In this document: one piece after another, positions 10,264 to 35,576 of the stretch
How the letters are laid out: each line of letters begins with the position of its first letter
Position numbering within the stretch: position 1 is the stretch's first letter
Assembly: GCA_963796455.1 (NCBI GenBank)
Contig: CAWCLO010000007.1
Coordinates: 229,859 to 293,858, forward strand
Length of the DNA: 64,000 nt
Reading direction: 5' to 3'
Source of the DNA: Candidatus Sulfomarinibacteraceae bacterium
GTDB taxonomy: Bacteria; Acidobacteriota; Thermoanaerobaculia; Thermoanaerobaculales; Sulfomarinibacteraceae
Made by a program: the position numbers and the translations under genes
The notes under the pieces: generated by a model
What the model was told of the DNA's origin: nothing
Database searches by the model: none
The model's input: only the letters and a program-made list of their open reading frames with translations

Positions 10264-10789
10264 TCACTCTTGTCCAAGACAGTGTCTCGGACAGCGTTCA
10301 GGAACGGCCCTGAAGGTGGGCCAAGGCCCACCTTCAGAGTTGTGTCCCGCTGGCTGGATCACCCAGCCCAGGCGGGAAGTATCGGACAGCGATCAGGGGC
10401 AGCGGCAGCGAACAGTCGCCAGCGGCAGTGTTCAGTCATCAGCGTCAGCGATCAGCGGCCGGGACAGTGAACAGCACTCATTTCTTCGAGGATCCGGCCT
10501 TGGTGGTGCGGCCGTCTCGGCCGCACGGTGGGCAGGCAAGACGCCGACACCACAGCGGCTGTTCCTTCTGTTGAACGACCCGGAGGTGGCCACGCCGTCA
10601 CTGCACCTGATTGCTGCCGCTGAACTCTGATCACTGTTCGCTGAACCTGGACACTGTCGCTGCCGCTGCAATTCGGGAGCGGGATCGGGTACGTGCCAAT
10701 CGCGAACCGATAATGCCTAAAACCAACCCGAAGACCTTCTATTGTCCTGGATGCGATTTCACGTGAAGATTTGTTTTCGACAGCAGCAA
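10264..10789 (-). mobile_element. TIR element copy E1 (REP-doublet cargo, diverged, double right end)
   Basis: TCACTCTTGTCCAAGACAG at 10264; alternative end at 10359; REP doublet 10503-10554; core CCGAATTGCAGCGGCAGCGACAGTGTCCAG on the minus strand; decayed left end about 10771-10789. Confidence 0.8.
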
Positions 10790-10804
10790 AACTGGATGCT
10801 GGAT

Positions 10805-11707
10805 TCAAAAACCCCACGGGAGTGTCCCCGTGTAACCCGAGCGGGTGTCCACGGTATAGCCCTCGACCTTGACCTCGATGGTCCGCCATTTATCGGTCCC
10901 CACGCCTGAGGCCTCAAAGGTGAGGATGTATCGAGAGGACAGTTCTCTGACCAACTCGTCGACGATCTCCGGCATAACCTCCGCCTTTGGGATGCGCCGG
11001 TAATGGCCTCCGGAAGCCTCTGCGATCATCGTCAGGATCTCCTCGTACGAAGGCCCATCGGATTCCATGGAAGGAGGTGGCGGTTCCACACCGAGCACAT
11101 AGATCGGTGTTTCGAGACGCCGGACCACATCCATTGCCTGTTCAGGGCTCATCTGCGAGGCATTGTCGACACCATCCGTGAGGAGGATGGCGGCACGTCG
11201 GTGATGGCGAGCCTTCTCGAGCATCTCGGGCACCCGACGCGCCATATCGTAGATTGCCGTGGTGCTCCACGGTTTGAGCGTCTCGAGAACCCGCGGCAGC
11301 AGATACCAACCCATACCAAAGGGGAATTTTTCGAGCACACGGTCGTCACCAAAGGTCCACAGAGCCAACTGATCTTCGGGCCGGCGGCGCTCCAGGAATG
11401 CAGAGATCAACTGTTTGCTTCCCGACAGCTTGCGACCCGACATTGAACCAGAGGTATCGAGGATAAAGCCGAGACTGATCGGCAGATCTGTTTCAAGATT
11501 CAAATCCTGGATCCGGACCTTGAGCCCATCGACATAGAGTTCGAATTTTTGCCGGGAGATACCGGTGACCACACGACCCTTGGCGTTTCGGACCGTCACC
11601 GGAACAACCACGGCATTGATGTCGACCTGACCCTGGTATTGAGCCTCGACGCCGCTCGCGACGCCGACGACGGCGATCGCGCAAAAAAGAAGGGCCCGCC
11701 GCATCAA
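10805..11707 (-). CDS. VWA-domain protein (acidobacterial VWFA type)
   Basis: MIDAS DTSGS, TAIYD, LLTDGVDNAS; signal peptide. Confidence 0.88.
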   Translation of the reverse strand: MMRRALLFCAIAVVGVASGVEAQYQGQVDINAVVVPVTVRNAKGRVVTGISRQKFELYVDGLKVRIQDLNLETDLPISLGFILDTSGSMSGRKLSGSKQLISAFLERRRPEDQLALWTFGDDRVLEKFPFGMGWYLLPRVLETLKPWSTTAIYDMARRVPEMLEKARHHRRAAILLTDGVDNASQMSPEQAMDVVRRLETPIYVLGVEPPPPSMESDGPSYEEILTMIAEASGGHYRRIPKAEVMPEIVDELVRELSSRYILTFEASGVGTDKWRTIEVKVEGYTVDTRSGYTGTLPWGF

Positions 11708-12036
11708 TTCTCGGGTTCGCCCGACTCGAGGAGGTCGGCACGGACATCGCGCCCGGTTGCCCTGCGGATTCGGTCGCCGATGCCTTCGATCGCCGGACCG
11801 CTTTCATCGAGGTCAATCCTCAGGACGCGGTGGATGGGAACAAAGAAGGTCGTCGGAGCGATCATCGCTTCCGAAGCAGTGCGAAGCTGGCGCAACCAGT
11901 CGTCGACCGCACCGAGCTCGAGGCCGCGCAGGACCAGCCCCACGGCGTCAAGCCGGACCACGACCCCCCACATTTTTTCCTTGGGGCTGCCGCAGTGAAG
12001 AATCACCAGGGAACCGTCACCTATGCCGTCCACCAT
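11704..12036 (-). CDS. Conserved hypothetical protein
   Basis: Coupled ORF within the operon (PKEKMWG...FFVPIHRVLRIDLDE). Confidence 0.7.
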   Translation of the reverse strand: MVDGIGDGSLVILHCGSPKEKMWGVVVRLDAVGLVLRGLELGAVDDWLRQLRTASEAMIAPTTFFVPIHRVLRIDLDESGPAIEGIGDRIRRATGRDVRADLLESGEPEN

Positions 12037-12045
12037 TCGAGCCTA

Positions 12046-12462
12046 CTACACCGAGATCTCGCCACCATCCGCCGGTTGCGAGAGCTCGAGCAAAACCCCG
12101 CCGGTCGACTTGGGATGGACAAAACAGACCAGGCAGTCGTGGGCTCCACGCTGCGGTTCTTCGGACAATAGGCGATAGCCGCGCGCCGTCAACTCCGCCA
12201 TCGCAGCCCGGATATCAGGAACCCGGAGGCAAACATGATGCAACCCGGGGCCTCTCCGTTCAAGGTGGCGCGCAATCGGTGAGGAAGCATCGATCGGCTC
12301 GAGCAACTCGATACGGCTGTCGCCGACCGGGAGGAAGGCCACCCGGACGCCCTGTTCGATGACTTCCTCGGTCCCCTCGACCTCGAGGCCGAGAGCCTCG
12401 TAGATGCCAAGTCGCTCCTCGATGGAATCGACGGCGATCCCGAGATGATCCAAAACCGTCAT
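12046..12462 (-). CDS. mce: Methylmalonyl-CoA epimerase (VOC family)
   Basis: [38 protein letters not shown] overlap with the upstream gene. Confidence 0.9.
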
Positions 12463-13616
12463 GGTGAGGACTCGAGGGCCTTGAGAAGCTCGCGAGCAAT
12501 GACCATCCGCTGGATCTCCGAGGTCCCCTCGCCGATCGTGCACAGCTTGGCATCCCGCCACGCCCGTTCGACCGGGTAGTCCTTGGTGTAGCCATAGCCG
12601 CCGTGAATCTGGATCGCTTCTTCGGCGACGGCGACGGCAACCTCGGAGGCGAAGACCTTGGCCATCGCTGACTCACGGGTGACTCTCAAACCAGCGTCCT
12701 TCATGGCAGCAGAACGTTGAGTCAGCAAACGCGCAGCATCGACGGAGGTCGCCATATCGGCGAGTTTTGCCTGGATCAGCTGGAAAGCGCTGATCGGCTT
12801 GCCGAACTGCTCCCTGGTGGATGCGTAACCGAGCGCCGCATCGAGAGCGCCGCGGGCAATGCCAAGAGACAAGGCGGCGATCGAGATTCGCCCACCATCG
12901 AGGACCTTCATCGCCTGGGTGAAGCCTTCCCCCTCGTTACCGAGCAGGAAACCAGCCGGAATCCGACAGTCCTCGAGCATCAGCGAGGAAGTATCCGACG
13001 CCCGCATGCCGAGCTTGTTCTCCTTCTTTCCGGCTTCAACACCCTTTCGATCAAAAGGAACAAAAAAGGCGGAGATTCCATGGTGAGCGCCCTCTTTCGA
13101 AGTCCGCGCCACCAGAACCGCCGCATCTCCGACACTGGCGTGTGTGATAAATGTCTTGGAACCGTTCAAGACCCATTCGTCTCCGTCACGGACGGCGGTG
13201 GTCCGGGTCCCTCCGGCGTCCGAGCCCGCCTGCGATTCGGTCAGTCCCCAGGCGCCGATCCACTCGCCCGAAGCCAGTTTCGGGAGGTAAGTGTTTCTGA
13301 GTTCATCCGACCCGAATAGATAAAGATGATTCGTACACAGGGAGTTGTGTGCGGCAACCGAGAGACCGATCCCACCATCGGCGGCCCCGATCTCCTCGAG
13401 AATGGCCGCATACTCCACGTAGCCCAGTCCGGCACCGCCGAATTCCTCCGGAATCACGACTCCGAGAAGGCCGAGCTCGCCGAGCTGGCTGAAGAGCTGG
13501 CGCGGAAAATGTTGGTTTTCGTCCCATTCGAGGGCGTGGGGAGCGATCTCTTTTTGCGCGAAATCGCGCACCATGTCCCGAATCGCGATCTGGTCATCTG
13601 ACAGCTGAAAATCCAC
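12459..13616 (-). CDS. Acyl-CoA dehydrogenase
   Basis: [44 protein letters not shown]. Confidence 0.95.
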
Positions 13617-13664
13617 TCATCCACCCCCTTGTCGATCAACACACCCAATCAGTCGAGCACCGAT

Positions 13665-15866
13665 TCACCTGCCGACTGCGCTTCCAGGCCAGCGCACAAC
13701 CTGAATGCCCGAATAATAGTGTTTGAGAATCCTCTCGAAATCCATCCCGACGCGCGCGAGACCGTAGGCACCGTGCTGGCACAAACCCACACCGTGCCCC
13801 CATCCGCGGCCCAGAAAATGAACCCGGCGTTCGCCGTCGGCCCCGGTTCTCAGGTGCATCGCGAAGAAAGTCTCCGGAAGTTCGAGCGCTTGTCGGACCT
13901 CGAAACCCGACCATTCGCGGGTTGTTCCATCCCGGGCGACCGCAGCCAACCCGATGACTCTTCCGGATGGTGAGCGCCGGGTCACGGTCAGTCGTTCGAG
14001 GGCCGTCATTCCAAGCACCTCTTCGATCTCCGACCAGCTCTTGTCGCGAACCCACTCGCGCCACGCCGATCGCCGGTCGGCTTCGCCGCCACCCTCGGAT
14101 CGAACGATGGCCAAGGCCGACACTCGTTCTCCCAGCCGAATTCGCTCGAGAACGGTTCCTGGAGACACCTCGGCGCTTCGCACACTCCGATACGCTCCAG
14201 CCCACCTTTCCCACAACGGAAGCATAGACGGCAGCGGCATCGAGTGTTTGGCGCGCCTGGGGAATATCCCAACACCGTCCGGTCGAGGCACCGCCTCACC
14301 CGTGTCGCGCACTACATCGCCGCGCAGTTCGAGAACCGTGAGCGCCGCCGCGGCCGCCCAATCCGAGCTCAGACCGGCAGACGGCGGGTCGAGGGGCGCG
14401 AGAAAAAGATCGGCCAGAAAGAGCAGTCTTTCGAGACCATTCGAAGACGGGGCGATACCGGACGGAGGATCGATGCCGGCAGCCTTCAGGAGCGCAGCAG
14501 AAAAGGTTTCGCCGTCGAGCGAGGTCGGCGTCCCAATGCTTGCTCCGAAACGAGACTGGAGTCGGGCCAGAATCTCTCCGGGACCGGAATTCGGTGCGAG
14601 AGCGAGAATCTGGAACGCAACCGCAGCCGAATAAGCCGTTTGATCGATCCAACCCGTTTCCGCCGACGCGCCGGCCATTTTCATCGGCCGATCCCAAGCG
14701 CACGACACGCCCCTCAAGTAGGGTCGGACGCGGCCCGGAAAGAGCACCTCCACATCCTCCGTATGCCCGCCACAGGTCGAGGTGTACATGGCATCGATGG
14801 GCTCACCTTCATAAACCGCCACCAGACCGGCACTCTCGCGGATGGCGCGGTTTGAAAGGGAGTGTTCGACATCAAAACCTTTATAGACCTGGCAGGTCGG
14901 GGTATCGCAGAGATCCCAGCCTTCATCGGCGTGATCGCCGAGATGGGCCACTGCGTAGGTTCTCGCGGCAACCGTCTGAGCCTTGAGGGCATTGAGTTCA
15001 GGAAACTGCGACGGGCCCATCTCGGCCGGAACCACACCCTTCAGATAGCTTTCGAGATTGAGTTCGTTGATGACCAATGCCTCGCCACCCATCGCCCGGG
15101 CCAGCAATCGTCCGCGGTATCGACGGGAACCGACGGCAACCGGCCAATCGCCCGCAGGGTCCATCAGGATCTCACCGGCGCTGGTCACCGCTGCGCCGTT
15201 TGCGCCGGCGATCCGCACTTCGCCACTGCGTGGGATCGGTCGGACGGCGTCGAAGCCGAGGGCCTCGAGCTCTCGTTCGGGATCAGAGGGCTCGCTGCCG
15301 AGCCATCCCACCAGAAGCCTGGTCAGACCATCCCGAATGGTCTCCTCTCGGATCTCGACAGACGATCCGAATTTTCGCTGCAGCCGCTGCCGCGCGGCGG
15401 CGACATTTGCCGGATCGCCCCACGCACCGAGTTGCCACCAGCGCGAACCGGCGGTATCCACCGTCACAGTGATCGGTCCCCATAACCAGGCGGCACGACC
15501 ATCAAAACTGAGGCGATACGCCCTTCCGGGTTGAGGCAGGCGAATCTGGGAGGATGAACGCTGGAGCAGGACGCGAATCAATGGCGGCTCAACGTCCTGA
15601 ATCCGCAGAATAGCCGGCGGCGGTACCGTTGGCACCGCGGTCGGCACGGGGGTCGCAGTCGGCACCGGCGTCGGCGTCCCCACGACTTCAGCCGTCGGGG
15701 CCGGAGTGGCGCTCGGTGGCCGCTGAATCGTCTGTGGCGCGCTGGCACAGCCCGCGGCCACCGCCAGGATACCGACGAGCACCACCCTCACAAGCGAATT
15801 CCCCCTTCGCGAGACGCGAGCCGCTGGGCGCGGTAGTCGAGTCCCCGGAGTTCGAGGCGCCGGCAC
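13665..15866 (-). CDS. SpoIID/LytB-domain lipoprotein (peptidoglycan hydrolase)
   Basis: Lipobox AAGC, YLKGVVPAEM, ALKAQTVAARTYA, CQVY, GWGHGVGLCQHGA. Confidence 0.9.
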   Translation of the reverse strand: MPAPRTPGTRLPRPAARVSRRGNSLVRVVLVGILAVAAGCASAPQTIQRPPSATPAPTAEVVGTPTPVPTATPVPTAVPTVPPPAILRIQDVEPPLIRVLLQRSSSQIRLPQPGRAYRLSFDGRAAWLWGPITVTVDTAGSRWWQLGAWGDPANVAAARQRLQRKFGSSVEIREETIRDGLTRLLVGWLGSEPSDPERELEALGFDAVRPIPRSGEVRIAGANGAAVTSAGEILMDPAGDWPVAVGSRRYRGRLLARAMGGEALVINELNLESYLKGVVPAEMGPSQFPELNALKAQTVAARTYAVAHLGDHADEGWDLCDTPTCQVYKGFDVEHSLSNRAIRESAGLVAVYEGEPIDAMYTSTCGGHTEDVEVLFPGRVRPYLRGVSCAWDRPMKMAGASAETGWIDQTAYSAAVAFQILALAPNSGPGEILARLQSRFGASIGTPTSLDGETFSAALLKAAGIDPPSGIAPSSNGLERLLFLADLFLAPLDPPSAGLSSDWAAAAALTVLELRGDVVRDTGEAVPRPDGVGIFPRRAKHSMPLPSMLPLWERWAGAYRSVRSAEVSPGTVLERIRLGERVSALAIVRSEGGGEADRRSAWREWVRDKSWSEIEEVLGMTALERLTVTRRSPSGRVIGLAAVARDGTTREWSGFEVRQALELPETFFAMHLRTGADGERRVHFLGRGWGHGVGLCQHGAYGLARVGMDFERILKHYYSGIQVVRWPGSAVGR

Positions 15867-16555
15867 ATTTCATAGAGCCTCGATCGGATCCTCTGCGATA
15901 CCCGGTCGGTCAACGACTCCTCGGCCGAAGCTTTGGGAAAATCCGAAAAATTGGTCGTGTAGATCGTCAGTTTGCCCTCGAGATAGCGCGTGTTGACCAG
16001 ATAGTAGAGAAGATCCATGACCCACGGCGTCGACTTTCCCGCTCCGAGTTCGTCGAGCACGAGGAGATCCGCGTCGATCAGTGGTCGCAGGATCTTGCGG
16101 CTCGACCCCGAGCCGTCAAAGGTCATCTGGATCTCGAGGATCAATGAGGTGAAATCGGCAAATCGTCCCCGGATCGCCGGGGTCTTTTCGCGCATTATCT
16201 GTTGCATCGCCGCCACCGCGAGGTGGGTCTTGCCCGTACCGACCGGCCCCATGAGGAGGAGGCCCTTGTCGGTGGCTGGAAAGAGATCGACGAATTCCTG
16301 AACCGAACGAACCGCCTTTGCGAGGGTCGGATCATCCGGGTTCCAAAGTTCGAAGTCCGCAAGCGTGCAATGTTGGTAGCGGGCTGGAATCTCGGCCTGT
16401 TGGAGATAACGTTCCCGCAATGCCCCGGCGGCGCACCCGCATCTCTTGACCAACTCGACGCCGTTTTCCTCCACCAGAATCCACCCGGTGCCGCCGCACT
16501 TCGAACAGGTCTCGGTCGTCTCAGCGCTCTCGGAGGTTTTTCCAGTTTCGGCCAT
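15788..16555 (-). CDS. DnaC/IstB-like ATP-binding protein
   Basis: CxxC...CxC zinc region, GPVGTGKTHLA, LLVLDELG, TTN, RIRSRLYEMC; start ATG 16555. Confidence 0.85.
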   Translation of the reverse strand: MAETGKTSESAETTETCSKCGGTGWILVEENGVELVKRCGCAAGALRERYLQQAEIPARYQHCTLADFELWNPDDPTLAKAVRSVQEFVDLFPATDKGLLLMGPVGTGKTHLAVAAMQQIMREKTPAIRGRFADFTSLILEIQMTFDGSGSSRKILRPLIDADLLVLDELGAGKSTPWVMDLLYYLVNTRYLEGKLTIYTTNFSDFPKASAEESLTDRVSQRIRSRLYEMCRRLELRGLDYRAQRLASREGGIRL

Positions 16556-16754
16556 CGGCACAGTATAGCCGCACCCTGTGTCCATCTCTTGGTTCGATTC
16601 GCTATCGCTATCGGGATCGCTATCGCTATCGATGGGCCTCTTTGGATCCAGCCTTTCGTTTTTCGACGGTTGATGCCAGATGCATCTCTTGGGGCAGTCA
16701 GTTCTCAATCTTTAACGCAGAGACGCCAAGGCGCAGAGTCGCAGAGACATCGCA

Positions 16755-17570
<816 letters not shown>

Positions 17571-17655
17571 TCCAGCATCCGGGATCCAGCATCCTGCATG
17601 CCTCGCCCTGCATCGAGTATCGTGTAATTGACAAACAACCGACCCGAGGTGATGT

Positions 17656-18258
17656 ATGGAAGCCGTCAAGGATGAATTGCTGGAATTCTGGTTCGGAAAT
17701 GACCCCGACGACGCGGTGGTGGCCGAGCAAAAGGCTGGACTTTGGTGGGGCCACCAACCCGGTACCGATGAGGAGATTCAGCGTCGTTTCGGCACCGCCG
17801 CCGCGGCTGCCGCGGTCGATTATCTCGATCACTGGAGTGGTTCGCCACGCGGCAGACTTGCCTTGATTCTGCTTCTCGACCAGGTCCCGCGCTCGATCCA
17901 CCGCGGAATGCCGGAAGCTTTCGCCACCGATTTCAAGGCTCGGGAGGTTGCCGTGCAGGGCCTCCAGAGCGGCGCCGACAAGTTGTTGCGGCCGATCGAA
18001 CGACTCTTCTTCTATCTGCCGTTTGAACACTCGGAAGAACTGGCCGACCAGGAACGAAGTATGGAGCTTTTTCGCCAGCTTGCCACCGAGGTTCCGGAGC
18101 AACATCGGGTCACCTTTGCCGCCTTTGTCGATTATGCGGTGAGGCACCACGCTGTCATCGCTCGTTTTGACCGCTTCCCCCACCGCAATATGGTTCTCGG
18201 CCGCGAGTCGACGCCCGAAGAGTTGGAATTTTTGGAGCAACCGGGGTCGTCGTTCTGA
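17656..18258 (+). CDS. DUF924 family protein
   Basis: LEFWF, LALILLLDQVPR, FFYLPFEHSE, FPHRN..LGR.STPEE. Confidence 0.9.
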   Translation: MEAVKDELLEFWFGNDPDDAVVAEQKAGLWWGHQPGTDEEIQRRFGTAAAAAAVDYLDHWSGSPRGRLALILLLDQVPRSIHRGMPEAFATDFKAREVAVQGLQSGADKLLRPIERLFFYLPFEHSEELADQERSMELFRQLATEVPEQHRVTFAAFVDYAVRHHAVIARFDRFPHRNMVLGRESTPEELEFLEQPGSSF

Positions 18259-18335
18259 GAAAGGGAGAAGGGCAGGACCGCACGGTTGCTCGATACTCGA
18301 TACTCGATACTCGATACTCGATGCTGGATGCTGGA

Positions 18336-19122
18336 TCACTCTTGTCCAAGACAGGGTCTCAGACAGCGACCAGGGACGGGGAACGGCGGACAGCGTCAGG
18401 AAACAGTAGTCAGCTGTCAGCGGCAGCGGCAGAAACCAGCGCCAGCGACAGTGGTCAGCGGCAGCGAATAGCACTTACATTTTCAAGTTCTAAAGCCGCC
18501 ACGTCATGGCACGGACCTGATCGAAGGCGTTCATCGCTTCACTGGCTCCGTTGGGGCTGATCGCCCCCGCATGGGCGAGGAGCTGCAAGTGGCTGTCGAC
18601 CTCTTTCGCCGAGGCGTAGGCGATTCTCCAATGGTTCAACCGGTCTCTACCGAAACAGCCGTGGCCTTCAGCCAGGTTCGCAGGGACTGAACTCGACGAT
18701 CGGATCACCTGATCGGCTATGGACTTCAGCGGAGCTGGAACCCTCATCACAAGCTTGATCGCTATTCCTGCTGCTTCGAGGGCTTTCGAGTGGGCAACGA
18801 GGTTGGTGTTCGTGGCGGCTTTGGACATGGTCACCTCCGGGTCGTTCATGCCCATTCCCACAAGCCGGTGTGGTGGCCGATGTCAAGGATGCCCTGCACC
18901 CTGCCTGTCCTTGACATCGGCCGCCCACCGGCTACCCCTTCTGTTGAACGACCCGGAGGTGGCCACGTCGTCGCCTGTACTCCTGACCGCTGCCGCTGGA
19001 CACTGATTGCTGATCTCTGTCGCTGACGCCGCCTCCTGTCGCTGTCCCTGCACCCTGGACACTGTCGCTGACGCTGGGCACTGTCGCTGCCGCTGCAATT
19101 CGGGATCGGGATCGGGATCGGG
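18336..19122 (-). mobile_element. TIR element copy E3 (four-helix-bundle cargo; left part lost at the CCCGAT array)
   Basis: TGCTGGA|TCACTCTTGTCCAAGACAG end, ORF, identical hairpin leader, conserved core. Confidence 0.85.
18490..18828 (-). CDS. Four-helix-bundle protein copy B (TAG five codons before the ancestral TAA at 18475)
   Basis: Near-identical to copy A. Confidence 0.85.
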   Translation of the reverse strand: MSKAATNTNLVAHSKALEAAGIAIKLVMRVPAPLKSIADQVIRSSSSVPANLAEGHGCFGRDRLNHWRIAYASAKEVDSHLQLLAHAGAISPNGASEAMNAFDQVRAMTWRL

Positions 19123-19193
19123 AAAACAGTGCGGTCAGCTCTATTCGCGATAATGAGCGCCGAATTTCTCATTCCTAGTTCATAATTCTGAAG

Positions 19194-20414
19194 ATGCGAG
19201 TCCTTCACGTCCTCTCCCAGCGGCCGTCCCTGACCGGCAGCGGCATCACCCTCGATGCGCTCGTCCGGCATGCCGCCGCGAAAGGCTGGGATCAACGGGT
19301 CGTGGTAGGCACACCGGCCGGTGATCCAAGGCCGCCAGTCGGCGGACTTGAGGGTCCCTTCATCGATCCTCTTGTGTTCGGTTCGCCGCCACTGGATTTC
19401 GAGCTACCCGGGATGAGCGATGTCATGCCCTATCCGAGCTCCCGGTTTTCAGAACTCCGGCCGACCCAGATCGACGCTTACCGAGAAGCGTGGACCAAAC
19501 ATCTCGAGCATGTGGTCGAAGACTTCGAGCCCGACATCATCCACAGCCATCACATCTGGCTGATGTCCGCTCTGGTCAAGGACGTCGCCACCGGTATCCC
19601 GGTCCTCACCCACTGCCACGCCACCGGTTTACGGCAAATGGAGCTTTGTCCTCATCTAGCCGACGATGTGCGCCGGGGGTGTTCGCGCAACGAGGCTTTC
19701 GCCGTTCTCCACCGCGGCCACGCGTCGGAACTCGAGACCCGACTCGGAATTCCCGGCCATAAAATTCATCGGGTTGGTGCCGGCTATCGCGACGATCTCT
19801 TTCACACCCACGATCGAGCACAGGAAGAGAATCCGGCGCTCCTGTTTATCGGGAAATTCAGCCGGTCAAAGGGCCTTCCCGAACTCCTGGACGCCTTCGA
19901 TCGAGTTCGGACGCACCGACCGGAGCTTCGGCTCCACGTCGCCGGAGGGGGCTCCGGCAACGAAGCGGACGAGTTGCGAGCGAGAATGGAGCGGATGGCT
20001 CCATCGGTTGAAATGCACGGCCGGTTGCCGCAATCGGCAGTCGCGGATCTGGCCCGGCGAGCAACGGTGTGCGTCCTCCCATCCTTTTACGAAGGACTTC
20101 CTCTCGTTCTGGTTGAGGCGCTGGCCTGCGGATGTCATCTCGTGGCGACCAATTTGCAGGGCATCCGCGAGGAGCTGGCGCCCCGGCTCGGCGATGCCCT
20201 GACTCTGGTTCCGTCGCCACGAATGATTTCTATCGACCGACCCGACCCCGGCTCCCTGCCGGTCTTTGTCGATGATCTCGCGACTGCAATCGATCAAAGC
20301 CTCGACAAGGCACCGATCGGCGACCCGAAAGCCTCTCTTCCAGAAGCCCTCGAGACCTTCTCCTGGACCGCTGTTTTCGAGCGGGTGGAACGGATCTGGC
20401 AGGGCCTTCTCTGA
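19194..20414 (+). CDS. Glycosyltransferase family 4
   Basis: HSHHIW, FIGKFSRSKG, LPSFYEGLPLVLVEALACG. Confidence 0.9.
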   Translation: MRVLHVLSQRPSLTGSGITLDALVRHAAAKGWDQRVVVGTPAGDPRPPVGGLEGPFIDPLVFGSPPLDFELPGMSDVMPYPSSRFSELRPTQIDAYREAWTKHLEHVVEDFEPDIIHSHHIWLMSALVKDVATGIPVLTHCHATGLRQMELCPHLADDVRRGCSRNEAFAVLHRGHASELETRLGIPGHKIHRVGAGYRDDLFHTHDRAQEENPALLFIGKFSRSKGLPELLDAFDRVRTHRPELRLHVAGGGSGNEADELRARMERMAPSVEMHGRLPQSAVADLARRATVCVLPSFYEGLPLVLVEALACGCHLVATNLQGIREELAPRLGDALTLVPSPRMISIDRPDPGSLPVFVDDLATAIDQSLDKAPIGDPKASLPEALETFSWTAVFERVERIWQGLL

Positions 20415-20416
20415 TC

Positions 20417-20764: not shown

Positions 20765-20837
20765 GGATATTCCTCCTTGGCAGCGATCATAGCCCGGACG
20801 GATGCTGGATGCTCGATGCTGGATACTTGACGCTGGA

Positions 20838-21701
20838 TCACTGCTGTCCAAAACAGATCGTCACCTGAAGTTACCCACCTGACAACACGTGGTTTACGGG
20901 TTGGTTTTTGGCATATCCGGTTCGCGGTTGGCACGTACCCGTTCCCGATCCCGAATTGCAGCGGCAGCGACAGTGTCCAGCGTCAGCGACAGACAACAGC
21001 GAACAGGGACAGCGGTCAGTGTTCAGCGCCAGAGAGCAGCGGCAGCGGTCAGGAGTACAGGCGACGAAGTGGCCACCATCGGGTCGTTCAACAGAAGAGG
21101 TAGCCGGTGGGCGGCCGATGTCAAGGACAGGCAGGGTGCAGGGCATCCTTGACATCGGCCACCACACCGGCTTGTGGGTATGGGCATGAACGACCCGGAG
21201 GTGACCATGTCCTCAGCCGCCACGAACACCAAACTCGTTGCCCACTCGAAAGCACTCGAAGCCGCAGGAATCGCGATCAAGCTCGTGATGAGGGTTCCAG
21301 CTCCTCTGAAGTCGATAGCCGATCAGGTGATCCGGTCGGCAAGTTCGGTCCCTGCGAACCTGGCAGAAGGGCACGGCCGGTTTGGTAGAGACCGGTCGAA
21401 CCACTGGAGGATCGCCTACGCCTCGGCCAAAGAGGTCGACAGCCACTTGCAGCTTCTCGCTCACGCCGGGGCGATCAGCCCGAACAGAGCCAGTGAAGCG
21501 ATGAAGGCCTTTGATCAGGTGCGTGCAATGACTTGGAGATTGCTCAACCCGAAGTCTTGATTTCAGGGCCCCATGCCAGTCAAACGTGACGCTGACTCCT
21601 GTTCGCTGACGCTGAACACTGATTGCTGTTCCCTGTCCCTGACGCTGATCGCTGTCGCCGTCCCTGAACGCCAGCCGAGACTCTGTCTTGGACAAGAGTG
21701 A
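20838..21701 (+). mobile_element. TIR element copy E4, complete, four-helix-bundle cargo, 7-bp flanking duplication CGCTGGA
   Basis: CGCTGGA|TCACTGCTGTCCAAAACAG ... CTGTCTTGGACAAGAGTGA|CGCTGGA. Confidence 0.9.
21207..21560 (+). CDS. Four-helix-bundle protein copy C, 117 aa
   Basis: About 10 aa differences from copy A; most nucleotide differences are synonymous. Confidence 0.88.
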   Translation: MSSAATNTKLVAHSKALEAAGIAIKLVMRVPAPLKSIADQVIRSASSVPANLAEGHGRFGRDRSNHWRIAYASAKEVDSHLQLLAHAGAISPNRASEAMKAFDQVRAMTWRLLNPKS

Positions 21702-21750
21702 CGCTGGATGCTGGAACCTCCGCGGCGTAGCCGGAGGGAAAAGCCTGAGA

Positions 21751-21960
21751 AACCGCAGATCACGCAGATCAACGCAGATTGACCCTCGCAATGGCCGTCG
21801 TGGCAAACACCATTGCCCACAGAACACACAGAAAAGCATGGAATAAGGCGCAAAGAACGCAAAGATGCCATGAACCTGAAGAAAAGAACCTCGACCGTCG
21901 CAAAAGTAAAACTTAGCGTCGCCTTTGCGCTTTTTGCGTTCTTAGCGTTTTTAGCGTTGC
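21751..21960. repeat. Cluster of short tandem and inverted repeats (CGCAGAT, CACAGAA, CGCAAAG / CTTTGCG)
   Basis: AACCGCAGATCACGCAGATCAACGCAGAT; CGCAAAGAACGCAAAG inverted against CTTTGCGCTTTTTGCGTTCTTAGCG. Confidence 0.75.
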
Positions 21961-22044: not shown

Positions 22045-22502
22045 TCACAGCTGTCCAAAACAAATCGTCATTTGAAGTTTTCCACCTGACAGCACCTGGT
22101 TTACGGGTTGGTTTTTACCGTATCCGGTTCGCGGTTGGCCCGTACCCGATTCCGATCCCGAGCCCGAATTGCAGCGGCAGCGACAGTGTCCAGCGACAGG
22201 GACAGGGAGCAGCGACCGGGTTCAGCGATCAGTGTTCAGCGGCAGCGATCAGGAGTCCAAGCGACGAAGTGGCCTCCTCCGGGTGGTTTTACAGAAGGAA
22301 CAGCGGTTGTGGTGTAGGCGTCTCGCCTGCACACCGCGCGGCCGAGACGGCCGCACCACAAAGGCCGGAGCCCGAAGAAGTGAATGCTGTTCGCTGTCCC
22401 GGCCGCTGATCACTGACGCTGATGACTGATTGCTGCCGCTGACTCCTGATCTCTGTCGCTGTCCCTGTTCGCTATCCGAGAACCTGTCTTGGACAAGAGT
22501 GA
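22045..22502 (+). mobile_element. TIR element copy E5, complete, REP-doublet cargo, 7-bp flanking duplication TCCAGAA
   Basis: TCCAGAA|TCACAGCTGTCCAAAACAA ... CTGTCTTGGACAAGAGTGA|TCCAGAA; REP doublet 22308-22360. Confidence 0.9.
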
Positions 22503-24478: not shown

Positions 24479-24496
24479 CGGTCCTCCCGATTCATG

Positions 24497-24550
24497 ATGC
24501 TACATCTGTAGCATATTCGCTACACTATAGCGAGAAATCAGGATTGTCAA
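24497..24550 (-). promoter_or_regulatory. Sigma70-like promoter with BlaI-type operator(s)
   Basis: TTGACA-17-TAGTGT; inverted repeat ATGCTACA-TC-TGTAGCAT (TACA-NN-TGTA) at 24497-24514; weaker second site 24518-24532. Confidence 0.8.
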
Positions 24551-24708
24551 GGCTTGAGGCTATGGGGCTATGGGGCTGTGAGGCTATGAGGCTTGAGGCT
24601 ATGAGGCTCCAAAGGACCGGATGTTTATCTGAGGATGTCACGGCCTGAGGCATGGGATCGGTGAGTAATCACGAACTCATAACTCCGAACTCCGAACTCC
24701 GAATTCTT
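24551..24708. repeat. Heptamer/octamer short tandem repeats (GGCTATG/GGCTTGA; AACTCCG)
   Basis: Directly visible arrays. Confidence 0.8.
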
Positions 24709-25683: not shown

Positions 25684-25699
25684 ACGCTAATATCATCCA

Positions 25700-26458: not shown

Positions 26459-26584
26459 CGAATTCGCAGTTCGGAAATCGGATTTCCCAGCCATTCAACA
26501 TGAACAGACCAGACTCGGTCGGCTCGACGACCGTCTGAATTCAGAACTCCGAACTCAGAACTCCGAATTCGTTACACTCCAGGC

Positions 26585-27424: not shown

Positions 27425-27537
27425 GCGTTGCACGATTCTCATTTCAGACTCGATACAAACAGGACGCAATCTCGATAACAATCACCTCCATCGAAATTCG
27501 TTATATGATGGTCAAAACCTCGGACTTGGAGGACGAT

Positions 27538-28962: not shown

Positions 28963-29109
28963 TGGCGAAGTGTAGCGCAGGGCTCGCCCGGAACGGGGAA
29001 TGGAGGCAGGGGAGAAAGGGAGATCGGTCAGTCGCTCGAAGCTCGATGCTGGATGCTCGATACTCGATACTCGATGCTGGATGCTGGATGCTGGATTCAG
29101 GATGCTGGA

Positions 29110-29501
29110 TCACTCTTGTCCAAGACAGGTTCTCGGATAACGAACAGGGACAGCGACAGAGATCAGGAGTCAGCGGCAGCAATCAGTCATCAGCGTCAGT
29201 GATCAGCGGCCGGGACAGCGAACAGCATTCACTTCTTCGGGCTCCGGCCTTTGTGGTGCGGCCGTCTCGGCCGCACGGTGTGCAGGCGAGACGCCTACAC
29301 CACAACGGCTGTTCCTTCTGTTGAACCACCCGGAGGAGGCCACTTCGTCGCCAGGACTCCTGATCGCTGCCGCTGCAATTCGGGATCGGGATCGGAATCG
29401 GGTACGGGCCAACCGCGAACCGGATATGCCAAAAACCAACCCGTAAACCACGTGTTTCAGTTGGCTAACTTCAGGTGGCGATCTGTTTTGGACAGCAGTG
29501 A
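29110..29501 (-). mobile_element. TIR element copy E6 (REP-doublet cargo, both termini present)
   Basis: TGCTGGA|TCACTCTTGTCCAAGACAG ... CTGTTTTGGACAGCAGTGA|TGGAGGA; REP doublet 29252-29304. Confidence 0.88.
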
Positions 29502-29624
29502 TGGAGGATGCTGGATGCTCTATCCCGATCCAGGGCCCGTTGCCGTTTCCTTTACCGCTACCGAACGGGCGAAAGCGAAAACTACTCGCTACTGCTTTCG
29601 CACGTATCCGAATGTCGCCTCCCG

Positions 29625-29745
29625 ATGTCATCCTGAGCGCAGCCCCTTCGGCGCGCAGTCGAAGGATCTGCGTCTCGGGATCTTTGTTTCCCATCTCATA
29701 GATCCTTCGACTTCGCCCCTGTTGGGGCTCCGCTCAGGAAGACAT
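29625..29745. repeat. Palindromic REP-like element TGTCATCCTGAGCG...GAAGGATCT / AGATCCTTCG...CGCTCAGGAAGACA
   Basis: Long imperfect inverted repeat. Confidence 0.8.
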
Positions 29746-29949
29746 ATTGAAAGCCAGTTCCGATCCCGTTTCCGTTTCCGAAAGCGAGAACGAGCCTTTA
29801 CATGGCAGAGGGGCGAAGCAACGTTCGCTATCGCTATCGGAATCGCTATCGCTATCGAACGGCTGTTGTGGATACGAATCCGGAACTGGCGACAGGGGGG
29901 CGGGCAGAACCGTACCGGAAGCGTCGTTCGTGATAAGGGCAGCAGTCTC

Positions 29950-30084
29950 CTCTGCTCCTCTCTCCTCTGCTCCTCTGCTCCTCTGCTCCTCTGCTCCTCT
30001 GCTCCTCTGCTCCTCTGCTCCTCTGCTCCTCTGCTCCTCTGCTCCTCTGCTCCTCTGCTCCTCTGCTCCTCTGCTCCTCTGCTC
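29950..30084. repeat. Octamer microsatellite (CTCTGCTC), about 17 units
   Basis: 15 perfect units at 29965-30084, preceded by one 7-nt unit and one perfect unit. Confidence 0.97.
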
Positions 30085-30090
30085 AATGTC

Positions 30091-30121
30091 AAAAAAAGCC
30101 CCGGGGGACAACCCCCGGGGC
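30091..30121 (-). terminator. Intrinsic terminator of hsp20
   Basis: GCCCCGGGGG-TTGT-CCCCCGGGGC-TTTTTTT. Confidence 0.9.
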
Positions 30122-30154
30122 ACCGAATTCCGTTGCTGATGAGAATAATCCGGC

Positions 30155-30619
30155 TTAATTGTTCTCGACCGTGATCTTGACCGAGCGGGGCTTCGACTCC
30201 TCTTTCTTCGGCAGAGTGAGGGTCATCTCGCCATTTTTGAATCGTGCCTCGATCTTTTCGATGTCGACGGTGTTTGACAGCGAGAAGCTGCGTTCGAATG
30301 CGCCATAGACGCGCTCCACTCGATGATAGGTCTCACCTTCGGCAGCCTCTTCGAGTTTGCGTTCGCCGCGAATGGTCAGCGTTCCCTCTTCAACCGTGAC
30401 CTCCACGTCCTCGGCGCTCAAACCGGGCAGATCGGCGGCAATGATCATCGCGTCCTCTTTCTCGAGAACATTGATGGCGGGGACCCAGGCTCCCCGCAGG
30501 GGCCGATCTTCCGTCGTGTTCCTCATGCCGCGTCCCAGGAACTCGTCAAACAAGCGCTCCATCCTTTGGTTGAGGGTCGCATTTTCAATACCGGGATTCC
30601 ATCGTGTCAACATAACCAT
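30155..30619 (-). CDS. Hsp20/alpha-crystallin small heat-shock protein
   Basis: WVPAINV, ADLPG, ERVYGAFERSFSL, ARFKNG...LPK. Confidence 0.95.
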   Translation of the reverse strand: MVMLTRWNPGIENATLNQRMERLFDEFLGRGMRNTTEDRPLRGAWVPAINVLEKEDAMIIAADLPGLSAEDVEVTVEEGTLTIRGERKLEEAAEGETYHRVERVYGAFERSFSLSNTVDIEKIEARFKNGEMTLTLPKKEESKPRSVKITVENN

Positions 30620-30663
30620 TTTGAACCTCCATTGCGCTCGTACGCGCTCATCGTTCGATGAAC

Positions 30664-30692
30664 AATATAGAATCTTAGTTACTAATTGTCAA
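30664..30692 (-). promoter_or_regulatory. Sigma70-like promoter of hsp20
   Basis: TTGACA-17 nt-TATATT. Confidence 0.75.
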
Positions 30693-30877
30693 GTATTGGC
30701 GAGAAGAATTTCATTTAAATTAGTGAAACTCACTAAGATTTATTACAAGACACTCAAAAAAAATGACTTTCCCCTACTCTTAACCATCATTGAATTCTCC
30801 AGGAAGACGGTGGCGTAACCATTTTCCGGGTGATTTTCGCCCTGATTCGGGTTAGACTTCCGACTCCGTTGTTTCAA

Positions 30878-32101
30878 ATGGCATTGTTGAGGTCCTTCAT
30901 CACCGTCTACACCTCAGCCTTCGCGGGTATCCCGCGTGAGGTGTGGCTGCTTTCGGGCGCCCTGCTCGTCAACCGCGCCGGGACGATGGTCCTCCCCTTT
31001 CTGAGTCTGTATCTGACCGCTGACATCGGTCTCACCGCGGTGCGCGCCGGCCAGATCATCGGCTGCTTCGGTCTCGGATCGATGCTCGGCTCCTACGCCG
31101 GCGGGTGGTTGTCGGATCGCTTCAGCCCGCTCAGGATTCAACAGCACTCGCTCCTCGTCAGCGGCTGCGGATTCCTGCTTTTTATCCGTCTCGACAGTTT
31201 CGTTGAGCTCGCGGCCGGCATCTTCATACTCGCGGCGGTCTCCGACGCCTTCAGACCGGCTCTCATGGTGTCGGTCGCCCACTTCAGTCCGGCCGGGGTC
31301 AACAAACGCGCCTTCGCGTTGATCCGTTTGGCTGCCAATGTCGGGATGGCCACCGGGCCGGCAATCGCGGGTCTCCTCGCCCACTACGGCTATGCCTGGT
31401 TGTTCGTCGGTGACGCCATCACCTGCTGGCTGGCGGCACTGATGCTGTGGCTGACCCTCGGGGCGACTGATGGTCCGCATCAGACCAGATCGGATGCAGG
31501 AGGCCACGCCGGCACCTCGCCCTGGAGGGACGGGCCGTATCTGTTCTTCCTCTTGCTGATCGTGATCCTGGGAATGGCCTTTTTTCAGGTCTGGACAACC
31601 ATGCCCCTGTATCTGCGTTCCTTCTACGGCGCATCCGAGCGAGCCATCGGCATATTGCTGTCGATCAACGCATTGGTCATCGTGCTCGCCGAAATGTTGG
31701 TGATCCGAGCCGTCGAGAGATTCGACGCCATGCGAACAATTGCGGCAGGCGCGTTCCTCGTGGGGGCGGGGCTGTCACTGCTGCCGTTTGGGCCTCCCTA
31801 CCTGGTGGCCGTCCTCGCCATCGTCGTGCTGACGTTTGGTGAAATGCTCGCCCTGCCGATCACAAATGCCATCGTCGCCGACCGGGCCGGTCGCGCCCAG
31901 ATGGGGCAATATATGGGTCTGTTCACCCTGGCGTTTTCCACGGCATTCGTGATCGGGCCGATCGTTGGAACCGCGGTCTACCAGCACCTCGGACCGGAAA
32001 CCCTGTGGTACGGCCTCGGCTGCACCGGAATCGGGCTCGCCATCGGTTTTGTTGTCCTGCGGCGATTCCTGCAAATCCCCAGTCAAGGATCTTCACCTTA
32101 A
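30878..32101 (+). CDS. MFS transporter
   Basis: About 12 TM segments, GGWLSDRF motif A. Confidence 0.9.
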   Translation: MALLRSFITVYTSAFAGIPREVWLLSGALLVNRAGTMVLPFLSLYLTADIGLTAVRAGQIIGCFGLGSMLGSYAGGWLSDRFSPLRIQQHSLLVSGCGFLLFIRLDSFVELAAGIFILAAVSDAFRPALMVSVAHFSPAGVNKRAFALIRLAANVGMATGPAIAGLLAHYGYAWLFVGDAITCWLAALMLWLTLGATDGPHQTRSDAGGHAGTSPWRDGPYLFFLLLIVILGMAFFQVWTTMPLYLRSFYGASERAIGILLSINALVIVLAEMLVIRAVERFDAMRTIAAGAFLVGAGLSLLPFGPPYLVAVLAIVVLTFGEMLALPITNAIVADRAGRAQMGQYMGLFTLAFSTAFVIGPIVGTAVYQHLGPETLWYGLGCTGIGLAIGFVVLRRFLQIPSQGSSP

Positions 32102-32226
32102 GTCTTTCGATCTCAACCACAACGCGCGTCGAGAGGCCGGCGGTGAAAGACCGGCGGACCACGCTCCGGAGAGTCGAGGCCCCGCGCTCCGGCATCTCGA
32201 CCTTTTCCCTGCTATATTGATGGGCT

Positions 32227-34959
32227 ATGACGTCGGATTCCTCCCCCGGCCGGAAGAAAAACTCCCGGTCGAATCTCTTCGAGATCCACACCGGCGAAGT
32301 CCTCGGGAAATTGCCGCGGGGTATCGCTGAGCGCGGCTATCATCTGTACCAGGATCGACGGGTGGCAAAAATCACCTGGACCGGTGCCGATCTCGAATCC
32401 GAGCTGGTGTCCCCGGCGTGCGTGGTTCAGATCTCCGATGTCGGCTGCAACGTTTTTCCCTCGAGTTCCTGCTCGGTGTGCGGCGATCAGGACATTCCCT
32501 GCCACCACGCGACGGCGACCATGCTGCAGTGGCTCGATATCCGATCGACGATGCAGCGCCTCGGGCCCGGAGCGATGTGGCGGGCGAACTCTCGCCACCC
32601 CTTCATCTCCCCTGGCCGGTCGGCCGCGGAACGAGTCGATCTCAGCCATCTGACGGGCAATGACCTGAGGTCGGCCCTCGAGCTGCAACTCTCCTTGCAG
32701 AAAACCGGCACCGCCCACGCGAGCATCGAGGCCAACGAAGTCGAAATCCGTATCGCTCTTCCTTCGGGTGATACCAGACTCGTATTCTTCACCGCATCAA
32801 ACCTCCCGGGCGCGCTACCCATGCTGCGATCGCTGCCGACCATCAAACTCGAGGGCGAGCTTGCCGAACTCGAACTTTCGGAGGCTCGTCTCCACCCGGT
32901 CCTGCTGTCCACCTGGAATGACCAGGGCATCATCCTCGAACCCGGCTACCGTCTCGGCAGCGGCCAGGTATTCACCGCCGAAAGCCTGGAGGGCAAAATC
33001 CACGGGCGTTGGGCACGCATCGGCAGCCACCTGTGCCGGCTCCTCGACCCCGCGACGCCTCTGGTTCCTTTTCACCGCCAGGGTCACCGAGTACTCAAGG
33101 GCAAAGAGGCCCTTCGATTCCTCAATCTCGACCACCCGCAGCTCCGGCAACACCCCTGGTACCACCCGCAGGATCATCTGGCGACCTTCCGCCAGCCCCA
33201 GATACCGACTCCCATCTCCTTCGAGGCGGAACTGACACCCAACGAGAAGGTGCGCCTGCGGCCCAGGTACACGGTCGAAGAGACCAAAATCAGTTGGCCG
33301 GAGGCGCTCGCCCTGCTCGAGAGCGGGTTTACCCGAATCGGCGAGACCATCGTCCGCGCCCCCGAAATCAAACCGCTCGAGGACCTCGGTTTCAAGATGC
33401 CCCGTCGCCGTCGTGATCTCGGCGTCCTCGGTTCAAGGGTCGCCTTCATTCGCCTCGTAGCCGAGACCGGATTGCCGGTCACCGGCCCGAACAAGGACCT
33501 CGCAGAACTGGCGGCAGTCCTGCAGGGTCGCTCCGGCCAGGATGTGGTCCGTCCTCCCGGCCTGCGCTCCCAGCTGCGGCCGTATCAGGCGGACGGGGTG
33601 GCGTGGTTGTGGAGTCGTTATCTGGTAGGTGTCGGAGCCCTTCTTGCGGATGACATGGGTCTCGGCAAGACCCACCAGGTGATGGGGCTTCTTTGTCTTC
33701 TTGCCGACCGCGATCCCAAAGCGCAAACATTGGTTGTCTGTCCACGTGGAGTGCTCGAACACTGGTACACCCTCCTCGGACGCTTCGCTCCGGGGCTCCC
33801 AGTACGCCTTTTCCACGGTCCCTCGCGTTCTCTTGAAGGTTTTGACAAAGGGGGTCTGGTTCTCACCACCTACGACATTCTTTTCAGATCAACCGAGGAG
33901 CTGATGGAACGGGAATGGGCGATCACCGTCTTCGACGAGGCCCAGCGGATCAAAAACCCCCGCACCAAGGCCGCTCGGGCGGCCCGTAAGATCCCGGCTT
34001 CCTTCCGCCTCGCACTCACCGGAACGCCCCTCGAAAACCGGCTCCTCGAACTCTGGTCGGTGGTCGATCTGATCGTTCCGGGATACCTCGGGTCGGAGCG
34101 TGAGTTCCGCGCCAATCACCGCGATCCCTCCCATCATCAACTTCACCTTCTCAGGCAGCGGCTCGGGGTGCTCACCCTCCGCCGCGTCAAAGATCAGGTA
34201 CTGGAGGATCTCCCCGAGAAGGTCGAAGACATTCGTTATTGCCATCTCCTGCCCGCTCAACGCACCCTCTACCGCCGCATTCACGCCCACCAGTCGCAGG
34301 AGATCGTTCGCATGCTCAAAGAAGAAGCGGATGAGATCCCCTACATGCACATCTTCGCCCTCCTCACAAAGCTCAAACAGATCTGCGACCACCCGGATCT
34401 GGTCAAGGATGGAGGGGCCACCGGCGGAGACTCGGCAAAAATCGAGGTCTTCGACGAGATCCTCGACGAGGCCCTCGACGGCGGTCTTCAGGTCGTGGTC
34501 TTCTCTCAGTATGTGAAGATGATCGATATCCTCACCCAGCACCTGGAGAAGCGCAAAATCAAACACCTGGTCCTGACCGGCGAGACCCGCGATCGCGGCC
34601 GAATCGTTCGCAGATTCAACTCCGAGCAACACGAAAAGGTGCTGCTCGCAAGCCTGCTCGCAGGGGGTGTGGGGATCGATCTCACCGGAGCATCGGTCGT
34701 CCTCCACTACGATCGATGGTGGAACCCGGCCAAAGAAAACCAGGCCACCGACCGTGTCCACCGGATCGGTCAGCGGCGTTTTGTCCAGGTCTTCAAACTC
34801 ATCACCCGGAATACGATCGAAGAACGGATCGATGAGTTGATTCGGCAAAAAATCGATTTAATGGAACGAGTGGTCGCACCGACGGAAGATGTCATCGGCA
34901 CCCTCAACCGTTCTGAAATCGTCGATCTCTTGGGTCTCGATCTGCCGAAGAAAAAATAG
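32227..34959 (+). CDS. SWIM-zinc-finger SNF2 family helicase
   Basis: C..C....PCHH; LRPYQ, LADDMGLGKT, DEAQ, TGTPLEN, WWNPA.ENQATDRVHRIGQ. Confidence 0.92.
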   Translation: MTSDSSPGRKKNSRSNLFEIHTGEVLGKLPRGIAERGYHLYQDRRVAKITWTGADLESELVSPACVVQISDVGCNVFPSSSCSVCGDQDIPCHHATATMLQWLDIRSTMQRLGPGAMWRANSRHPFISPGRSAAERVDLSHLTGNDLRSALELQLSLQKTGTAHASIEANEVEIRIALPSGDTRLVFFTASNLPGALPMLRSLPTIKLEGELAELELSEARLHPVLLSTWNDQGIILEPGYRLGSGQVFTAESLEGKIHGRWARIGSHLCRLLDPATPLVPFHRQGHRVLKGKEALRFLNLDHPQLRQHPWYHPQDHLATFRQPQIPTPISFEAELTPNEKVRLRPRYTVEETKISWPEALALLESGFTRIGETIVRAPEIKPLEDLGFKMPRRRRDLGVLGSRVAFIRLVAETGLPVTGPNKDLAELAAVLQGRSGQDVVRPPGLRSQLRPYQADGVAWLWSRYLVGVGALLADDMGLGKTHQVMGLLCLLADRDPKAQTLVVCPRGVLEHWYTLLGRFAPGLPVRLFHGPSRSLEGFDKGGLVLTTYDILFRSTEELMEREWAITVFDEAQRIKNPRTKAARAARKIPASFRLALTGTPLENRLLELWSVVDLIVPGYLGSEREFRANHRDPSHHQLHLLRQRLGVLTLRRVKDQVLEDLPEKVEDIRYCHLLPAQRTLYRRIHAHQSQEIVRMLKEEADEIPYMHIFALLTKLKQICDHPDLVKDGGATGGDSAKIEVFDEILDEALDGGLQVVVFSQYVKMIDILTQHLEKRKIKHLVLTGETRDRGRIVRRFNSEQHEKVLLASLLAGGVGIDLTGASVVLHYDRWWNPAKENQATDRVHRIGQRRFVQVFKLITRNTIEERIDELIRQKIDLMERVVAPTEDVIGTLNRSEIVDLLGLDLPKKK

Positions 34960-35124
34960 CATCTGCTGCAAACACGCTTCTGGATGCTAGATGCTAGATG
35001 CGGCAAGCTCGTCGATTCGTCCCCAAGCCTGTACAGAGTTACACCGGAACTGATGGTGATTTGCGCTTGAGGGGATTTTTCAGAAGACGGACTAAATCGG
35101 GCATCGAGCATCCTGTCTCCAGCA

Positions 35125-35576
35125 TCACTGTTGTCCAAAACAGATCGTCATGAAGTTTCCCACCTGACAACACGTGGTTTACGGGTTGGTTTTTGGCATC
35201 TCCAGTTCGCGGTTGCCCCGTGCCCGCGTCCGCGTCCGCGTCCGTGCCCGAATTGCAGCGGCAGCGACAGTGTCCAGGGGCAGCGACAGGGATCAGCGAT
35301 CAGAGGCAGAGATCAGGGGCAGCAATCAGGTGCAGTGATGGCGTGATCACCTCCGGGTCGTTCAACAGAAGGAACAGCCGTTGTCGTGTCGGCGTCTCGC
35401 CTGCCCACCGTGCGGCCGAGACGGCCGCACCACCAAGGCCGGAGCCCAAAAGAATGAGTGCCGTTCACTGTCCCGGCCGCTGATCGCTGACGCGGATGAC
35501 TGAACACTGCCGCTGACTCCTGTTGGCTGTCGCTGTCCCTGATCGCTGCGCAACACTTCCTACCTGGGCCGAGTGA
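35125..35576 (+). mobile_element. TIR element copy E7 (REP-doublet cargo, alternative right end)
   Basis: TCCAGCA|TCACTGTTGTCCAAAACAG ... CCTGGGCCGAGTGA|TCCAGTA; REP doublet 35382-35433. Confidence 0.85.

Follow-up and report, generated by a model that had tools for sequence, protein, structure and literature searches.

The window analysed here, a stretch of 64,000 nucleotides from the genome of a Candidatus Sulfomarinibacteraceae bacterium, contains seven related intergenic repeats (E1 to E7), some of which encode a small four-helix-bundle protein. The question raised by this locus is what moves these elements and what the protein contributes to their spread. A preceding sequence-only reading saw in them a new class of elements, mobilised in trans or by a mechanism involving the protein itself. 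Our analysis suggests another division of roles. The copies are probably cassettes that possess the ends of IS4-family insertion sequences but no transposase, are likely moved in trans, and carry a separable passenger module that is under selection.

All seven copies are located where they had been placed and match the common core at 19/19 positions. The architecture ascribed to them is not complete in every copy; both termini are well kept in three of the seven (E4, E5, and E6). Copy E1 (10265..10788, reverse strand) is gene-less and contains two REP-like hairpins; its left terminus is degenerate (15/19) and its flanks agree at 4/9 positions. E6 (29111..29500, reverse strand) and E7 (35126..35575, forward strand) are also gene-less and have flank repeats of 7/9 each; E6 retains both ends, and the decayed right end of E7 gave no match of at least 13/19. 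E5 (22046..22501, forward strand), another gene-less copy, retains both ends and a perfect 9-bp duplication, ATCCAGAAT. Its REP-doublet cargo (22307..22361, forward strand) resembles repeats located beside a Y1 (RAYT-like) gene on contig C1. REP-like hairpins replace the ORF in all four of these copies, and we take the cargo of the short copies to be REP doublets of RAYT transposases. E2 (16755..17569, forward strand) is truncated on the left, begins at the GGTTT box, and keeps the right terminus and an intact ORF (17117-17470). E3 (18337..19122, reverse strand) has neither the left terminus nor the GGTTT box, and its ORF (18828-18490) contains a premature TAG codon. The 117-aa four-helix-bundle cargo described earlier was confirmed as a member of PF05635/TIGR02436, but it occurs only in E2, E3, and E4, and is cut to 112 aa in E3.

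Several other features adjoin these copies. E2 and E3 flank a DUF924 gene in inverted orientation, and the outer ends are missing in both (15788-20414). Within the same interval, the DUF924 gene and a glycosyltransferase gene are each inverted relative to the congeners, in which GT4, DUF924, and an IstB-like gene are co-oriented; a link between these inversions and the elements around DUF924 is possible. Short palindromic repeats of other families (CGCAGAT- and CGCAAAG-type) adjoin cassettes at 16715-16748 and 21754-21958, and many loose read ends accumulate at position 21747. The window also contains a 113-bp unit repeated 3.1 times with 99% identity (49439-49783).

Copy E4 (20839..21700, forward strand; 862 bp) is a complete IS4-ended cassette with an intact four-helix-bundle module, and copies 98-99% identical to it are present on two other contigs. 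The perfect (9/9) target duplication ACGCTGGAT flanks it on the left (20830..20838) and on the right (21701..21709), in both cases on the forward strand. The left IS4-type terminal inverted repeat of 17 bp (20839..20855, forward strand) is identical to those of six IS4 elements (17/17, with 16 of these bases matching by construction of the search). The right one, also of 17 bp (21684..21700, reverse strand), was not part of the search pattern and matches six IS4 elements at 13-16 of 17 positions. According to the terminus profile, the remainder of the IS4-derived left end, including the GGTTT box, occupies 20856..20930 (boundary approximate; forward strand), and a similar subterminal motif is found at equal distance in the loci L014, L040, and L086. 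Further inward, all on the forward strand, follow the part of the inner module that comprises the hexamer array, the core, and the left CAGCG-rich arm (approximately 20936..21073), a leader hairpin (21074..21209), the ORF of 117 aa (21207..21560), and a right arm complementary to the left one (approximately 21590..21683). The fold of the whole element, with these arms around the ORF, has a z-score of -8.6. Positions 20910-20920, at the start of the inner module, read GGCATATCCGG and agree in 9 of 11 bases with GGCTCATCCGG, the ISL3-type end; this weak match, which has no partner on the right side, is perhaps a decayed ISL3 end within the IS4 shell.

The search for the termini that had been recommended with the original description revealed a genome-wide family. 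Namely, 245 matches of at least 16 bits were obtained in the genome versus none in the reversed genome, and at least one element part was present at 226 loci. Paired termini define 67 elements shorter than 1 kb (332-889 bp), and 105 termini have no partner. The paired elements contain either the PF05635 module or REP cargo or lack both, and none encodes a transposase; genome-wide, 65 full-length and 24 partial ORFs were counted.

Identity between the two flanks of an element is high over nine positions (-8..0), including the T and the A with which the elements were initially thought to begin and end. Because flank identity spans nine positions, we define the element as CACTGCTGTCC...GGACAAGAGTG with a 9-bp target duplication. 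The boundaries given previously were one base off at each end, and a duplication of 7 bp was rejected; the perfect repeats of E4 and E5 and the near matches of E6 and E7 remain valid. Duplications of 9 bp are perfect in 21 of the 67 paired elements and match at 8/9 or better in 37, and the duplicated target is symmetric, with a consensus of about ATSCWGSAT. In the congener G006, which has the youngest copies, perfect 9-mers likewise flank 12 of the 26 two-ended copies. The proposed comparison of flanking 7-mers gave a result above chance as well: the two flanks have the same 7-bp core in 24 of 67 elements (shuffled mean 2.5, maximum 9; 5000 shuffles). On the other side of the balance, 25 of 67 match at no more than 5/7 positions. 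A base-level empty site was not found in the four read runs of short contigs.

A rival explanation treats the flank matches as an artefact of heptamer arrays, into which the copies inserted or between which they recombined, with gene conversion as the sole means of spread. Neighbouring array units are indeed identical in 11/67 and 16/67 cases, so that arrays explain part of the flank identity, and mosaicism among the copies is strong. However, 12 of 20 non-array sites retain a match of at least 6/7, unique perfect 9-mers flank copies in G006 and in other records, and in 19 congeners the gene is missing from all 20 loci orthologous to that of DUF924, one of them having an IS4 end. We consider the artefact very unlikely. 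A 7-base array containing AT provides AT-N5-AT once every 7 bases, which may account for insertion into GATGCTG-type arrays. The arrays were also considered as excision footprints, and this was rejected as a period of 7 is incompatible with a duplication of 9 bp.

When species genomes were scanned with the left 16-mer, 119 stretches were obtained, 80 of them with flanks. An inverted partner was located 1344-1411 bp away in eight stretches, three of which have perfect 9-bp duplications. All six ORFs scanned belong to NF033592 (240-266 bits; cut-off 115) with the domains DUF4372 and DDE_Tnp_1, and the YREK motif is present in these partner enzymes. The earlier reading had named a match of the termini to a known IS as grounds for its own refutation, and the IS4 family provides this match. 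Table 1 of PMC2266710 lists for IS4Sa an end pattern of CA------T and a duplication of 8-10 bp; the ends, size, and duplication of the cassettes fit IS4Sa, the subgroup being judged by these three features alone.

Transposases of the DUF4372/IS4 type were not found in this genome, the assembly of which is 90.5% complete, nor in G006. One of 25 genomes, that of the congener G017, contains such a gene; its IS4 element has the same left end as the cassettes and sits in heptamer arrays, and that genome has a single match to the end pattern. A larger copy with the same ends, the search for which had been advised, was not found here and exists elsewhere in the form of the IS4 elements of 1344-1411 bp. 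Three terminus pairs spaced 3.7-4.8 kb apart were considered as longer autonomous copies and rejected, as no IS4 gene that could fill them was found in the genome. The DDE gene of the window (61216-62277) was dismissed as a mobiliser since the ends of its element differ. It belongs to a complete IS (61041-62417) that has a DUF772+DDE_Tnp_1 transposase on the reverse strand and ends GAGCCTCTTGCAAAA, and whose 4-bp duplication is ACGT; an IS110 gene follows (62828-63901). The earlier view of the copies as mobile, transposase-free elements mobilised in trans is supported by their IS4-matching ends and 9-bp duplications. Excision and insertion of the cassettes would likely be carried out in trans by an IS4 DDE transposase of the DUF4372 type, which is presumably absent from, or was missed in, this assembly; their own protein would not be the mover.

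The four-helix-bundle gene is unneeded for cassette spread. Of the 67 paired elements, 32 have no ORF and six more only a piece of it. A deletion of the hairpin and the start is common to nine loci, where microhomology is present and recurrence is possible. An allele with a lost start and a stop was found in four of nine copies fetched from G149 (L413, L417, L418, and L419) and flagged in nine of 30 scored, and this dead allele multiplied among near-identical intact copies. Since gene-less and gene-dead copies have multiplied, and since the module occurs within ISL3 ends or without ends (see below), the protein does not serve as the transposase. The opposite proposal, of a new class of TIR elements moved by the four-helix-bundle protein itself with 7-bp duplications, could draw on the lack of a cognate transposase in this assembly and on the conservation of the sole ORF. 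It is contradicted by the 9-bp duplication, by ends equal to those of IS4 elements, by the same gene within ISL3 ends with 8-bp duplications, and by the occurrence of the same IS4 ends mostly on short elements of ~310-390 bp in G008, G012, G033, and G034. As far as the TIR shell is concerned, both the new class and a mechanism using the protein are largely refuted and scarcely credible.

The passenger ORF was assigned to PF05635 with 52-57 bits (cut-off 33.8) and to TIGR02436 with 53-59 bits (cut-off 24); it also matched the structure 2GSC (E 3e-4). Its leader forms a pair of nested stems (z -7.75), the outer of which pairs with the Shine-Dalgarno/start region and buries the ribosome-binding site. 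Compensatory changes were recorded at 27 of 39 pairs in 21 leaders from 17 genomes, which are related sequences and not independent. The GTCAAGGG/CCCTTGAC core is almost invariant in these otherwise covarying stems. Distinct G-U and A-C mismatches in the stems were about equally common (15 versus 21, no difference), so that the hairpin may act either as RNA or as DNA. A search of Rfam gave nothing close to a gathering score. All four of the other, unrelated PF05635 genes of this genome also lie within inverted short-repeat arms. Stand-alone arrays of 7 or 8 bases, some of them inverted pairs, were observed in the window at 38514-38865, 39995-40259, 24550-24703, and 29947-30084; they use words that form the arms of these other genes. 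Full cassettes are co-oriented with the upstream gene in 30 of 57 cases, i.e. without bias, which lends no support to a dependence on read-through from host genes. The downstream gene shares their orientation in only 18 of 57, with an uncorrected p of 0.0075 in a set of eight tests.

The function of the passenger may be approached by analogy. Pentamers of Avd, the accessory protein of diversity-generating retroelements, bind an RNA stem-loop (available text of bioRxiv 10.1101/2023.10.23.563531), PF05635 proteins are described as homologous to Avd (available text of PMC10053308), and the ORF of rRNA intervening sequences is reported to be poorly translated (available text of PMC4990558). Because of these three precedents, we tentatively suggest as the most likely role, with slightly less than even confidence, that the passenger is an Avd-like RNA-binding pentamer, that the leader hairpin restrains its translation, and that the pentamer binds this same hairpin.

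Among 25 genomes of the genus, 18 contain close homologues, and copy numbers range from 0 to 76; at the level of the class, homologues were detected in 18 out of 151 genomes, which belong to two families. GGYTCATCCGG ends with 8-bp duplications enclose this set of arms, leader, and ORF in five genomes (G005, G008, G014, G017, and G149). These are the ends of elements bearing ISL3 transposases in G008 and G017 (L376 and L377), and in G149 the hexamer array and the core are also inside them. An intact ISL3 element of G017 (L377:948-3186) adjoins an ISL3-ended cassette missing its other end. IS1595 was rejected as the partner of the GGYTCATCCGG shell (none of five genomes), and a metagenome scan for this shell returned 120 stretches with two short paired elements and no transposase. 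Other copies have no shell. In G004, which has 36 copies, neither end was present in 21 of 30 examined, and the copies are 23% apart. The genomes G165 and G087 contain at least 30 and 22 copies, respectively, and no recognisable ends were found in the copies inspected in these genomes and in G097. The shell-less copies of G165, G087, and G097 (L424-L432 and L436) often lie in hexamer arrays that keep one direction across the copy, in contrast to the inverted arms of the cassettes in the window.

In a tree of 69 sequences, built with recombination ignored, the IS4-shelled ORFs and one ISL3-shelled copy form a group with a support of 100, nested in a clade with a support of 98 that comprises ISL3-shelled copies and some without a shell. 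The interior of the cassette, consisting of arms, leader hairpin, and ORF, is a separable module. The hairpin and ORF appear to be older than their IS4 shell, and the module appears to have moved into it from an ISL3 shell.

Codon analysis was performed on the 58 of 65 full-length copies that are in frame (one with an early stop and two with GTG starts); six frameshifted copies and one with a divergent block were left out. Variants shared by at least two copies gave an omega of 0.15 (0.11-0.21; 56 non-synonymous and 133 synonymous), versus 0.63 (0.43-0.95; 69 and 40) for private variants (p 1.7e-8). Depending on how indels were treated, the private omega took values from 0.47 to 0.83; the value of 0.83, obtained with 52 of 65 copies taken as intact, is inflated because compensating gaps were misaligned. 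Shared variants number 0.095 per site in the leader stems and 1.58 per synonymous site; 68 of 72 rows entered this count, four being left out for poor alignment. Private non-synonymous and stem changes occur at about half the synonymous rate. Assembly error is an unlikely source of the private class because seven contigs with unique flanks from read run X1 differ from the window at one position in ~2,200 bases. The same contrast was obtained in G004 (0.48 private versus 0.20 shared). It was not seen in G006, G008, and G014, where private omega is 0.11-0.25; the sets from these genomes are small and favour the copies with the best scores. The ORF is thus under purifying selection across dozens of copies. 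The copies are ~10% apart and mosaic (four-gamete violations 33-49%, r2 0.02-0.06), probably as a result of gene conversion. The initial interest in this gene therefore proved justified for a selected module of hairpin and ORF that recurs in other shells, and misplaced for a mover.

What keeps the passenger intact is a separate matter. According to the reading preferred here, selection would act on those alleles that seed or convert other copies, and inserted copies would slowly decay. It is also conceivable, though rather unlikely, that the module is a selfish RNA-protein unit, in which the pentamer binds its own leader and biases copying or conversion towards intact alleles, and which, besides spreading in some lineages without IS ends, acquired ISL3 ends first and IS4 ends later. 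The stricter form of this idea, which we rate a shade lower, is that the protein promotes copying or conversion of its own hairpin with a preference in cis, the IS ends being later vehicles. A selfish unit would agree with the multiple copies without recognised ends in G004, G165, and G087, several of them in direct hexamer arrays, with the much stronger purging of shared than of private variants in this genome (G000) and in G004, with the invariant core amid covarying leader stems, and with the placement of all four other PF05635 genes in inverted short-repeat arms. Yet dead alleles have multiplied, reverse transcriptases were not found in the genome (no RVT_1 match at 90.5% completeness), and the shell-less copies of G004 are old and may have lost their ends. 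The four-helix-bundle fold is not known to have a catalytic motif. If true, the selfish module would be a free-living source of the ORFs of rRNA intervening sequences and of the Avd proteins of diversity-generating retroelements.

Selection on each copy at the level of the host, with the cassette as a mere vehicle, is improbable to a similar degree. The protein would be useful, or mutant subunits of a homopentamer or derepression would be harmful, and null alleles would be tolerated where missense alleles and broken stems are not. This explanation accounts for the spread of null alleles alongside the depletion of missense changes, for the reduced rate of private non-synonymous and stem changes, and for the low private omega in G006, G008, and G014. 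With ~58 redundant copies, however, the benefit of any one copy would be small, the upstream gene is not co-oriented, and copy number varies from 0 to 76 within the genus. The reading of IS4-ended cassettes moved in trans with a selected passenger remains the likely one.

The family to which the passenger belongs is very large and is not known to have a role outside diversity-generating retroelements. The system described here offers a defined cis-element that covaries, natural alleles by the dozen on which selection can be measured, dead-allele controls, and candidate transposases. Two old questions thereby become testable in a laboratory host, namely what PF05635-type proteins bind and how genes of the intervening-sequence type travel.

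Comparison with known systems places the two parts of the cassette differently. The 23S rRNA intervening sequences (S23p), as presented in the available text of PMC4990558, also have a PF05635 ORF within long complementary arms and a weak or blocked translation start; in contrast to them, the cassettes are intergenic and have IS ends and duplications. An intervening sequence proper was rejected, as the 23S gene (C10:140644-143654) is full-length (3011 bp) and uninterrupted, and no element part maps there. With the Avd proteins, the passenger shares a homologous fold, and stem-loop binding by Avd, as given in the available text of PMC10053308 and bioRxiv 10.1101/2023.10.23.563531, is a precedent for binding of the hairpin; a diversity-generating retroelement was rejected, since a reverse transcriptase was not found in the genome. 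The cargo of the short copies resembles the repeats flanking the Y1 gene (Y1_Tnp match) on C1, but unlike RAYT REP doublets the cassette doublets ride within IS4 ends.

The shell is closest to the IS4 family (NF033592, DUF4372+DDE_Tnp_1), with which it shares the 17-bp ends (13-16/17 on the right) and the 9-bp duplication; unlike IS4 elements, the cassettes contain neither a transposase nor a remnant of one. The second shell found in relatives is ISL3-derived, its ends and 8-bp duplication being common with autonomous ISL3 elements. Passenger genes are known in IS4-family elements (accessible part of PMC2266710). Passenger-bearing cassettes are represented by MIC231 of the IS231 subgroup in the same source, and MITEs are treated in the accessible part of PMC9330008. 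As far as these texts go, our elements resemble mobile insertion cassettes in their IS4-type ends, duplication of ~9 bp, lack of a transposase, passenger gene, and gene-less derivatives. They differ from MIC231, as portrayed there, in that the ends fit IS4Sa and not IS231, in the ~200 loci per genome, and in a passenger for which no function is known, which follows a hairpin leader and is also met within ISL3 ends. A description of such a cassette was not found in the literature searched, with most subscription papers beyond its reach. On the features tested, the cassette is an IS4-derived mobile insertion cassette. The vehicle is ordinary; the unusual part is the passenger module.
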